42,290 nucleotides of DNA, filler included, from Candidatus Woesearchaeota archaeon (GCA_023266675.1; 3 parts of 3 records of this genome joined end to end with filler, not necessarily neighbours in it); one strand, 5' to 3'. Positions 14,402-38,756 are shown, counted from the first letter of the whole stretch. Translations and numbers: made by a program. The notes: a model not told the origin generated them from the sequence alone.

Positions 14402-14403
14402 AA

Positions 14404-14503
14404 NNNNNNNNNNNNNNNNNNNNNNNNNNNNNNNNNNNNNNNNNNNNTTAATTAATTAANNNNNNNNNNNNNNNNNNNNNNNNNNNNNNNNNNNNNNNNN
14501 NNN
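14404..14503. other. artificial contig spacer
   Basis: 100 nt: N44-TTAATTAATTAA-N44, with stops in all frames. Confidence 0.95.
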
Positions 14504-27904: not shown

Positions 27905-28376
27905 ATGGCTAAACGATTAAAGGTTGGACTCGCACTTGGATCAGGTGCTGCAAGGGGACTTGCACATATCGGAGTAATAAACATTCTAAAAAAGAACAAT
28001 ATCAAAATAGATTATATTGCAGGCACAAGTGTTGGCGCAATGGTTGGGGCGTATTATGCGTTAAATTGTGAGCTAATTAAGTTTGAGGAAAAAGTTGTGG
28101 GGCTTACCAAATCAGGAGTGTTTAGACTTATTGATTTGACAACACCAAACCAATCAATCATAAAGGGTGTTAAAGTTAAAAGATTCCTTGAAGAATGTTA
28201 TGGTAATAAAACGTTTAATAATTTAAAGATTCCCTTGACTGTAATTACAACTGACTTATATTCTGGAGAGGAGTTTATAATAACGGATGGAAACTTAGTT
28301 GATGCTGTTATGGCAAGTATTAGTGTTCCGGGAGTTTTTCCTCCGCAAAAACTTAAAAGAAGATACCTCGTTGATG
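27905..28376 (+). CDS. patatin-like phospholipase, 3'-truncated by contig end
   Basis: LALGSGAARG, GTSVG nucleophile elbow, ASISVPGVF, LVD(G) at the break. Confidence 0.92.
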
Positions 28377-28476
28377 NNNNNNNNNNNNNNNNNNNNNNNN
28401 NNNNNNNNNNNNNNNNNNNNTTAATTAATTAANNNNNNNNNNNNNNNNNNNNNNNNNNNNNNNNNNNNNNNNNNNN
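28377..28476. other. artificial contig spacer
   Basis: 100 nt: N44-TTAATTAATTAA-N44. Confidence 0.95.
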
Positions 28477-37743: not shown

Positions 37744-37863
37744 AGCCCCTGGAGGAAATTGCATCCTCGACCTGCAGATTGCTTATCTACAAAAACATTG
37801 TAGCTACAAGTTTCGACAAAGAATTTCTTCTTTCTGCCGCAATAGCTACTATGCTACAGGGGC
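37744..37863 (-). tRNA. tRNA-Thr(UGU) with two introns (37812-37833 at position 30/31; 37780-37804 at position 37/38)
   Basis: Acceptor GCCCCTG/CAGGGGC plus U73. Removing the 22-nt and 25-nt inserts gives GCAGA-CTTGTAA-TCTGC. Each insert forms a BHB-like 4-bp helix with the exon. Confidence 0.88.
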
Positions 37864-37902
37864 ATAGTTATAGACTAAAGAAAAATGTTCTATTTAAAAA
37901 TA

Positions 37903-38544
37903 TTACTCTTTAATACCTAAAATTCCAAGTTTATCTTGATGTTTCGGGTTTGGAAAACCTATTTCTTTATCCCACTTTTTAAGCATTTCATATCCATTAA
38001 TGGTAAGTCTAAGCCCTTCATTCCAATTTGGCTTATTCTTATTTATTGTCCATATTGAAGTTTTATATCCTAAATTTCTAAGAATACTGTTTATTTGTAA
38101 CATCAATTCCTTTGAAACATTGCACATTTCTATTCTTGGATAAATCTTTGTTTTATTAGCAAGAAATGTGTTTATACTTCCATCTGTACTTACAAATCCT
38201 CTTAAAAATGCTTTTTGGAGAGAAACATTTTCACATATCTTTTTAGGAATAATAACCTTATCTTTCTTGCCTAAAGGCAAACCTAATATTTTATGCTTAA
38301 AATTTACAATTTCTTTATTATGAATTCTAAATCCAATTGTTCCTTTTGACCATGGCTTTAAGTTTGGTTTTATACCATAAACTTCATTATACAAAGGAAT
38401 AATGTGATTAGTCATATACTTTTTATCATCGATATGATGACAAGCTAAAGTATAAGTATAAACTCTGTTGTAAATGTTCATGCTTCCGTCACCAACATGA
38501 ACTCCAGTTTCTTCTGCTAATTTCTCGTTAAGTTTAAATTTCAT
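37903..38544 (-). CDS. free-standing LAGLIDADG (DOD, intein-type) endonuclease-like protein
   Basis: Two motifs, LAEETGVHVGDGS and KAFLRGFVSTDGS; IGFPNPKH tail; GGAGGT SD before ATG 38544; no intein splicing domains. Confidence 0.9.
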   Translation of the reverse strand: MKFKLNEKLAEETGVHVGDGSMNIYNRVYTYTLACHHIDDKKYMTNHIIPLYNEVYGIKPNLKPWSKGTIGFRIHNKEIVNFKHKILGLPLGKKDKVIIPKKICENVSLQKAFLRGFVSTDGSINTFLANKTKIYPRIEMCNVSKELMLQINSILRNLGYKTSIWTINKNKPNWNEGLRLTINGYEMLKKWDKEIGFPNPKHQDKLGILGIKE

Positions 38545-38756
38545 TTTAAAAACCTCCAAATTTTAGTTTAATTGATACTTTGGAGTTTAATCAAAAAGAG
38601 AGCGTTTAGCATAACTGCATAATTGATTTTTGCAATAATATTCAAAAATTATTATTTAGCGGTTTTGTGTAGTCTCTTTTTAGAAAAATAAAAAGAATTA
38701 GTTTATATATTTCTCGTGCATAGCTGTCCAGTGAGTCCAGTGTATTATTATCGTCG

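Follow-up and report, generated by a model that had tools for sequence, protein, structure and literature searches.

It has long been debated how archaeal tRNA genes gain introns, especially at non-canonical positions, and why such genes end up in fragments. Models in print for tRNA intron gain invoke intron transposition or integrase-type elements. The locus described here lies in a stretch of 42,290 nucleotides (nt) from a Candidatus Woesearchaeota archaeon (GCA_023266675.1), referred to below as the window. In it, a free-standing gene for a LAGLIDADG endonuclease stands immediately upstream of a tRNA-Thr(UGU) gene with two introns. This raises the question of whether the endonuclease, the tRNA gene and one of the introns could move together.

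The answer favoured here is that they probably do: the endonuclease would be an active selfish homing enzyme that forms a two-part mobile element with the tRNA-Thr(UGU) gene and the 22-nt intron at tRNA position 30/31. That the enzyme cuts, where it does so, that the intron protects and in which direction evolution ran are inferences. In intron-less tRNA-Thr(UGU) genes nothing interrupts the anticodon-stem region, and according to the proposed mechanism the enzyme would recognise this region and cut near 30/31. The break would then be repaired from the allele that bears the element. Through this repair, the intron would be copied always and the endonuclease gene often; the stop of this gene lies 70 bp from the 30/31 intron, and the gene is just upstream of the tRNA promoter. 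With its site split by the intron, the resident tRNA gene would be spared, and the host would put up with the intron since it has a splicing endonuclease and RtcB of its own to remove it. The endonuclease lineage would descend from forms encoded inside the same 30/31 intron. Where the upstream side offered no homology, repair would be one-sided, leaving a truncated 5′ piece of the old tRNA gene ahead of the endonuclease gene.

The window is made up of three contigs (C79, C82 and C83) of one 1.22-Mb, 83-contig genome (G000). These are joined by N spacers at window positions 14403-14503 and 28376-28476, and neighbourhoods across these joints are not real. The finding lies on contig C83, where a position equals the window position minus 28476.

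The Endonuclease Gene and Its Product

The open reading frame (ORF) of the endonuclease runs from ATG to TAA and encodes 213 amino acids (aa). The upstream frame stays open for five codons more only, giving 218 aa from a TTG. The sequence GGAGG at 38557-38553 forms a Shine–Dalgarno (SD) sequence 8 nt ahead of the ATG. The product matches the Pfam family LAGLIDADG_3 (PF14528) with 40.7 bits (E 2.8e-10), where the cut-off is 22.5. The two aspartates that end the LAGLIDADG motifs, D19 (in GDGS) and D121 (in TDGS), are invariant in 31/31 aligned family members. The same holds for G18-D19-G20 and T120-D121 as units. This alignment reaches down to 29% identity and contains 13 invariant and 31 nearly invariant columns.

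An AlphaFold2 (AF2) model built on the family alignment has a mean pLDDT of 95.2. It places the motif helices at 7-19 and 107-121, with D19 and D121 at their C-terminal ends. The top Foldseek matches are archaeal, namely the TliVMA intein endonuclease, I-Tsp061I, PI-PfuI and I-DmoI, with E values of 5e-11 to 1e-8. Over the full length the best match is I-Tsp061I, the enzyme of an archaeal intron (209 columns, TM 0.74/0.77, approximately 19% identity). A profile search of PDB sequences agrees, returning TliVMA, PI-PfuI, I-Tsp061I and I-DmoI. A profile score above the cut-off and fold matches to solved enzymes thus place the protein in the LAGLIDADG family, with its duplicated alpha-beta-beta-alpha-beta-beta-alpha fold.

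An earlier note on this DNA had described a two-motif LAGLIDADG ORF of this length with both aspartates and its own SD sequence, lying in neither an intein nor an intron. Both statements hold. The ORF has its own ATG, SD sequence and stop, no host frame flanks it as would be seen around an intein, and the gene is outside any intron in the window genome.

The tRNA-Thr(UGU) Gene and Its Two Introns

The endonuclease stop (37903) and the tRNA +1 (37863) are 39 nt apart, on the same strand. The promoter box of the tRNA gene, TTTTTAAATA, occupies 37900-37891 and begins 2 nt past the stop, an arrangement that the earlier note had given correctly. The unspliced tRNA-Thr was missed by ARAGORN, with and without intron mode, and by Rfam, at both the gathering threshold and E <= 10. 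The tRNA-Thr(UGU) gene is real. Its 120-nt stretch folds far better than shuffled versions (z = -6.1). An acceptor stem of 7 bp, a T arm and a discriminator U can be recognised in it. Its exons align one by one with the intron-less tRNA-Thr(UGU) genes of relatives. Deletion of RNA positions 32-53 and 60-84 leaves a 73-nt product that ARAGORN calls as a full-length tRNA-Thr(tgt). This agrees with the earlier description of the gene as intron-containing.

Both introns are of the bulge–helix–bulge (BHB) kind, in which two 3-nt bulges with the splice sites flank a 4-bp central helix. Intron 1, formally at 30/31, pairs its nt -7 to -4 with exon nt 25-28, and a bulge of 3 nt, AAA, comes next. This helix has been kept through two-sided changes in L155, L158 and L127, the pairs seen being CGGC/GYCG, CGTT/GACG, CGTC/GGCG and CGAC/GTCG. 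Intron 2 contributes UAAG to a helix with CUUG of the anticodon loop (nt 32-35); 3-nt bulges flank this helix, and one extra A is unpaired. The genome encodes two EndA genes and RtcB, and the predicted splicing leaves a canonical tRNA. The other Thr matches of the genome are a GGU gene and one read as CGU, based on 5′-end pattern or ARAGORN calls. As the copy in the window is the only UGU gene found, it must presumably work.

The layout is that of collaborative homing, in which the endonuclease gene is outside, but adjoining, a gene with an ORF-less intron. In run X2 of a sister sample, an 87-nt DNA contig carries a near-identical tRNA-Thr 5′ exon and diverges exactly at 37833 (the end of exon 1), going on from there as the intron-less form. 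Possible target alleles thus live in the same habitat.

Two further observations concern the tRNAs of this group. The tRNA-Thr genes of the order (UGU, CGU and GGU; the window and L093-L141) have the T loop UGCAAYU, with G at 55, and the D loop AGUAGCUA, without the usual GG. The contact between the D loop and the T loop may have been re-paired in these tRNAs, GC with GC. In intron mode, ARAGORN finds 28 tRNA genes only in the 95.9% complete genome and seems to mistake the isotype of several; non-canonical introns hide many tRNAs of this genome.

A Family Linked to tRNA Genes

The endonuclease is part of a large family of DPANN archaea. Relatives of the endonuclease were collected as 47 matches with E <= 0.001 among 148 candidates, nearly all of them 207-235 aa long. 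Species-representative genomes contain 101 stretches that code for a relative, of which the best 80 were used. Together with three own-genome copies, this gave 83 loci, which were classed using ARAGORN in intron mode, three Rfam hits and a custom acceptor/T-arm scan; L006 was re-classed.

The commonest arrangement, at 47 loci, is a same-strand tRNA that starts -119 to +74 nt from the endonuclease stop, typically at +19 to +42. At 13 loci the tRNA is convergent. There the last 20 nt or so of the ORF overlap the tRNA 3′ end, and the TGA of the antisense T loop serves as the stop of the ORF. A tRNA lies within 350 nt upstream of the endonuclease at seven loci. A further 13 have no tRNA by that scan, three of these being intron-borne, and three end at a contig end. 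Consequently, 60/80 evaluable loci have a tRNA at the 3′ end of the endonuclease. This compares with 17/887 own-genome ORFs of at least 150 aa and 20/350 other ORFs in the same loci. The enrichment of solo LAGLIDADG genes beside tRNAs, which the earlier note had asked about, is therefore present.

The neighbouring tRNAs are Thr(UGU), Ile(GAU), Met/Ile2(CAU), Asn(GUU), His(GUG), Arg(GCG), Lys(CUU), Phe(GAA) and Thr(GGU). In a quick IQ-TREE phylogeny of 79 rows, which left out L010 (a stop in the match) and the broken copies L077, L079 and L083, the Thr rows fall 11/11 in one endonuclease clade. The isotype label changes 19 times on this tree against 44.1 times after shuffling, with 0/200 shuffles as low; as kin share labels, this shows isotype clustering and not co-evolution. 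A FastTree phylogeny of 132 rows agrees; it leaves out duplicates, broken copies, matches shorter than 150 aa, and members in long frames or linked to rRNA. The comparison of endonuclease phylogeny with tRNA isotype, also raised earlier, thus finds clades that follow isotype. In the Ile clade, the endonuclease is upstream, downstream or convergent to tRNA-Ile, which fits specificity for the tRNA gene rather than one flank.

Two approaches to typing and finding the tRNAs were set aside. Typing intron-bearing tRNAs through ARAGORN on all single-deletion variants was dropped as too permissive. A relaxed acceptor/T-arm scan returned mostly noise, and gave the lead to the intron-borne copies.

The window genome itself holds two more paralogs at approximately 30% identity (G000:C77:102-773 = L002; G000:C18:4077-4700 = L003). 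One own-genome paralog runs 18 nt into the 3′ end of an opposite-strand, intron-bearing tRNA-Phe(GAA). The 3′ end of the C18 paralog is without a tRNA, the nearest being a divergent tRNA-Asp 333 nt upstream. A distant member in a Hadarchaeota contig (L069:151-753) is located at the start of a 16S rRNA gene. The Rfam match to that 16S gene spans 3.6 kb (L069:685-4345), so that the gene is intron-rich.

Association with the 30/31 Intron

Family members have been found inside the tRNA intron itself. In L020 (Lys-UUU), L025 (Lys-CUU) and L027 (Asn-GUU), the endonuclease is encoded within a tRNA intron at 30/31 or 31/32, and the ends of these introns pair in long helices. A metagenome scan gave 274 relatives, of which the best 80 of 274 were kept, some duplicating genome loci. 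Among these, nine intron-borne copies were found by script and one by eye (L162, L165, L185, L188, L193-196, L203, L221), again in a tRNA intron at 30/31 or 31/32. Their hosts include tRNA-Thr(UGU) in L165 and L162 and tRNA-Ile(GAU) in L221. The endonuclease-bearing introns of L162, L165, L020, L025, L027 and L221 occupy the site of intron 1 of the window, and the helix and bulge of intron 1 are the same as theirs.

In the 132-row tree, L165 and L162 are basal members of the Thr clade. In the Lys(CUU) clade (support 100), intron-borne copies are mixed with free-standing ones, and the tRNA beside the free-standing members keeps an ORF-less mini-intron at the same site.

The 30/31 intron is present in 20/24 Thr(UGU) alleles beside a free-standing endonuclease and in 4/25 such alleles without one, the latter drawn from 151 genomes of the order (Fisher p = 2.6e-6; distinct alleles, kinship ignored). 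Intron-less alleles with the same exon junction also occur, in L126 and in the run X2 contig.

A number of points weigh against the two-part element. The co-occurrence figures are hand counts that ignore shared descent, and the endonuclease-free sample comprises 50 of at least 175 pattern matches, 6 of these being unparsable. The isotypes of neighbouring tRNAs were assigned via alignment to intron-less members and anticodon-loop motifs, with no tRNA caller. Three endonuclease-side alleles are without the 30/31 intron (L007/L147, L148, L014/L163), and L013 has its intron elsewhere. Conversely, four endonuclease-free alleles carry it (L102, L108, L118, L127), and no endonuclease remnant was detected at E <= 1 beside L102, L108 and L118, the three of the four that were examined. 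Linkage to the endonuclease is seen only for the 30/31 intron and not for the canonical 37/38 one. Of the 53 distinct tRNAs adjacent to members of the Ile(GAU) clade, only 27 carry any insert on the 5′ side of the anticodon loop and 15 have no intron, and the His and Arg clades are also partly beside intron-less tRNAs. Owing to these Ile, His and Arg neighbours, intron shielding is not a general family rule; elsewhere in the family, differences in the site must protect the resident copy, or the targets must be others. Lastly, no same-strain empty-site or intron-less variant was seen in the contigs of the examined sequencing runs (assembled contigs only, in which such an absence carries no weight), no read or contig in these runs joins across the endonuclease or the intron, and nothing from the RNA run of the source sample aligned.

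The co-occurrence with introns that the earlier note had asked about is seen in the Thr-clade counts, with kinship ignored, and is no rule in the Ile clade, which is often beside intron-less tRNAs. It had also been suggested that the enzyme could cut intron-less tRNA-Thr alleles while the introns protect the resident copy. The comparisons support such a role, so far a predicted one, for the 30/31 intron, and the 37/38 intron is unlinked.

An unlikely alternative draws on some of these points. A free-standing homing endonuclease could be aimed at the tRNA-Thr gene or its flank with the introns playing no part. In that case, the resident gene would be spared through base differences, and the 30/31 intron would merely share a common ancestry with the endonuclease lineage. 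Counts that ignore relatedness leave room for this, as do the many members beside intron-less tRNAs (15/53 in Ile, and L014 within the Thr clade). The anticodon stems of three intron-less Thr neighbours also differ from the common GCAGA stem. It accounts poorly, however, for family members encoded inside the 30/31 intron itself, and for truncated old tRNA pieces that end at nt 9-28, just 5′ of 30/31. Nor does it sit well with a same-family genome with an empty site that lacks exactly the 30/31 intron and has kept the 37/38 one.

Patchy Distribution and the Empty Site

Matches to the family of any strength occur in 25/41 genomes of the order, many of them within frames of >800 aa with an intein-like look. 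Strong matches (E <= 1e-20) are limited to 11/41 related genomes, and all matches (E <= 1e-5, some in long frames) range from 0 to 9 per genome. Broken copies are also found, with five stops in G004:C9 and one in G019, in addition to L077, L079 and L083.

The 220-aa host gene upstream of the endonuclease in the window is present in 13/13 relatives. In G001, a member of the same family, the ortholog of this gene (54% identity) is followed directly by the promoter box TTTTTAAATAG and the orthologous tRNA-Thr, with no endonuclease. The tRNA-Thr at this empty site has a D-loop intron and the 37/38 intron and is without the 30/31 intron. The same empty arrangement is found in G010. Compared with the empty site, the window has approximately 850 nt extra, consisting of a promoter module, the untranslated region (UTR) and the ORF. 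Presence and absence at one site among relatives are as expected of a mobile gene, and the endonuclease appears to be selfish rather than housekeeping.

This distribution bears on two further explanations. It is improbable that the gene is an intact-looking relic, once mobile and now inactive or fixed, that slowly decays beside the tRNA. The broken copies elsewhere show that such decay happens in the family, and the lack of a same-strain variant in the run contigs would suit a fixed copy. Against this, the frame is whole, both aspartates and the conserved columns described above are retained across 31 sequences, and the promoter module and SD sequence of the endonuclease are conserved.

More doubtful still is a domesticated host factor, either a WhiA-like DNA- or RNA-binding protein or an intron maturase acting on the neighbouring tRNA gene or its transcript, which the earlier note had offered as its alternative. 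High sequence conservation across wide DPANN diversity, tight placement beside tRNA genes and a weak WhiA-domain match of 14.9 bits could be cited for it. That match is under its cut-off of 23.2, and Pfam finds no further domain. The features of a WhiA-like protein, namely loss of the aspartates, an added helix-turn-helix and a near-universal single copy, are absent from the endonuclease, whose catalytic aspartates are kept. The patchy occurrence, the pseudogenes and the empty site speak against a host function, and BHB introns are removed by EndA, which is present in the genome.

tRNA Fragments as Possible Repair Scars

At several loci, a promoter and the first part of a tRNA gene precede the endonuclease, and a complete tRNA follows it. 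The fragments comprise tRNA nt 1-28 (L144), 1-21 (L156), 1-9 (L158) and 1-21 (G004:C9 = L110). In L144 and L158, the old tRNA piece differs in sequence from the complete copy, which suggests that the incoming unit may include the tRNA gene. If a break in the anticodon stem, on its 5′ side, were repaired from one side only, truncated pieces of this kind would be left. In L017 and L029, duplicated tRNA 3′ ends flank the convergent copies. The window itself shows no duplicated tRNA piece ahead of the endonuclease.

The duplicated tRNA ends that flank some copies (L017, L029, L110, L144, L156) resemble att duplications, and there is a likeness to the model in the portion of Sugahara et al. 2012 (PMC3293823) considered here, but it is scarcely credible that the endonuclease is cargo of an integrase-type element using tRNA genes as attachment sites, as the extra DNA is so short and has no integrase, its neighbours are host genes found in 13/13 relatives, and 65 pattern matches on viral contigs included 0 confirmed relatives of the endonuclease.

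A separate set of duplications was noted in L046, L054, L061 and L077, where a second copy of the last 18 nt of tRNA-Ile lies 80-280 nt past the complete gene. These extra ends may be scars of earlier 3′-end insertions.

Other Features of the Locus

The features of the locus are collected in Table 1. The conserved upstream module starts 14 nt past the stop of the 220-aa host gene, and is the probable promoter of the endonuclease; the inserted DNA has its left end here. A further contig from the source run has only 38690-38742 in common with the window and departs from it at both ends.

Table 1. Positions of the endonuclease gene, the tRNA-Thr(UGU) gene and associated features, counted from the first letter of the window.
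Feature	Position	Strand	Evidence
Single-chain, free-standing LAGLIDADG homing endonuclease gene, 213 aa; D19 and D121 end the two motif helices	37903..38544	(-)	ORF, Pfam, alignment, AF2, fold matches
Pre-tRNA-Thr(UGU), 120 nt including discriminator U; exons 37863-37834, 37811-37805, 37779-37744	37744..37863	(-)	Fold, alignment, ARAGORN after intron removal
TATA-like tRNA-Thr promoter box, separated from tRNA +1 by 27 nt	37891..37900	(-)	Sequence; same box and distance in the G001 empty site
Intron 1, 22 nt, ORF-less, tRNA position 30/31	37812..37833 (37832-37811 gives the same product)	(-)	Helix kept in relatives
Intron 2, 25 nt, canonical position 37/38	37780..37804	(-)	Sequence; position common to relatives; product checked with ARAGORN
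Conserved upstream module CACTGGAC ... TATA-like ATATATAAA (38710-38702)	38701..38742	(-)	Kept upstream of Thr-clade endonuclease genes elsewhere
Endonuclease 5′ UTR with two inverted repeats	38545..38690	(-)	Folding and conserved arms

The folding of the 5′ UTR (z = -1.6) is weak by itself. Its second hairpin (approximately 38580-38551) covers the GGAGG of the SD sequence, and may act in translational control by burying it. Compensating changes in the hairpin arms of relatives were noted by eye, CUCCAAAGU/ACUUUGGAG corresponding to CUAAGUU/AACUUAG of L008. Elsewhere, an Rfam RT-16 RNA match of 102 bits (L022:2319-2455) lies 1.5 kb upstream of the endonuclease of that locus.

Comparison with Known Systems

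Homing endonucleases, collaborative homing and BHB introns are known, and this locus adds a variant to these kinds. Collaborative homing pairs are reported from phages, namely the free-standing F-CphI with an ORF-less psbA group I intron in cyanophage S-PM2, and T4 mobE with the defunct I-TevIII intron (PMC6083498, PMC2790892). As is reported for these pairs, the endonuclease gene of the window is outside the ORF-less intron of a neighbouring gene. The target would likewise be the intron insertion site of an intron-less allele, and intron and endonuclease would travel together. The window differs in its host, a cellular archaeon, and in its LAGLIDADG enzyme, with cleavage so far a prediction. 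Its intron is a protein-spliced BHB intron in a tRNA, whereas those of the phages are self-splicing group I introns in protein genes.

The enzymes I-DmoI and I-Tsp061I of archaeal rRNA BHB introns share the fold and the single-chain, two-motif build of the window enzyme, whose relatives are also encoded inside BHB introns. Here the hosts are tRNAs and not rRNAs, and the copy in the window is outside the intron, upstream of the promoter.

A free-standing endonuclease linked to tRNA genes has a parallel in SegB of phage T4 (PMC13096335), a GIY-YIG enzyme in the T4 tRNA gene cluster. In contrast to the window enzyme, SegB belongs to another nuclease family, is phage-borne and has no intron partner. 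It is said to bring about homing of the tRNA region.

The closest archaeal arrangement is the tRNA-Thr(GGU) locus of Caldiarchaeum subterraneum, where a tRNA fragment, an insertion with an 813-bp ORF and an intron-bearing tRNA are found (Sugahara et al. 2012, PMC3293823, in the part consulted). The order of tRNA fragment, ORF and complete intron-bearing tRNA-Thr recurs in L110, L144 and L156, and intron gain is linked to a mobile element in both cases. That part of the paper proposes integrase-mediated site-specific recombination and contains 0 occurrences of LAGLIDADG and homing; a homing endonuclease is proposed here instead. In literature searches of full texts without supplements, no paper was found on tRNA-linked or tRNA-intron-encoded archaeal LAGLIDADG genes.

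Implications for Archaeal tRNA Genes

The locus and its family offer a concrete agent for the gain of tRNA introns, in the form of a homing endonuclease with relatives inside the neighbouring intron. Empty sites, intron-less targets and repair scars are available for experiment. With its many LAGLIDADG enzymes, which seem to recognise the sequences of tRNA genes, the family is also a natural series of considerable size.

A wider view, for and against which the case is about evenly balanced, is that LAGLIDADG homing spreads non-canonical archaeal tRNA introns, such as the one at 30/31 here, as mobile DNA. In this view the gene for the endonuclease would move in and out of the intron, and faulty one-sided repair would make tRNA fragments, duplicated halves and extra introns. 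If true, this would be a general source of disrupted tRNA genes in DPANN and other archaea.

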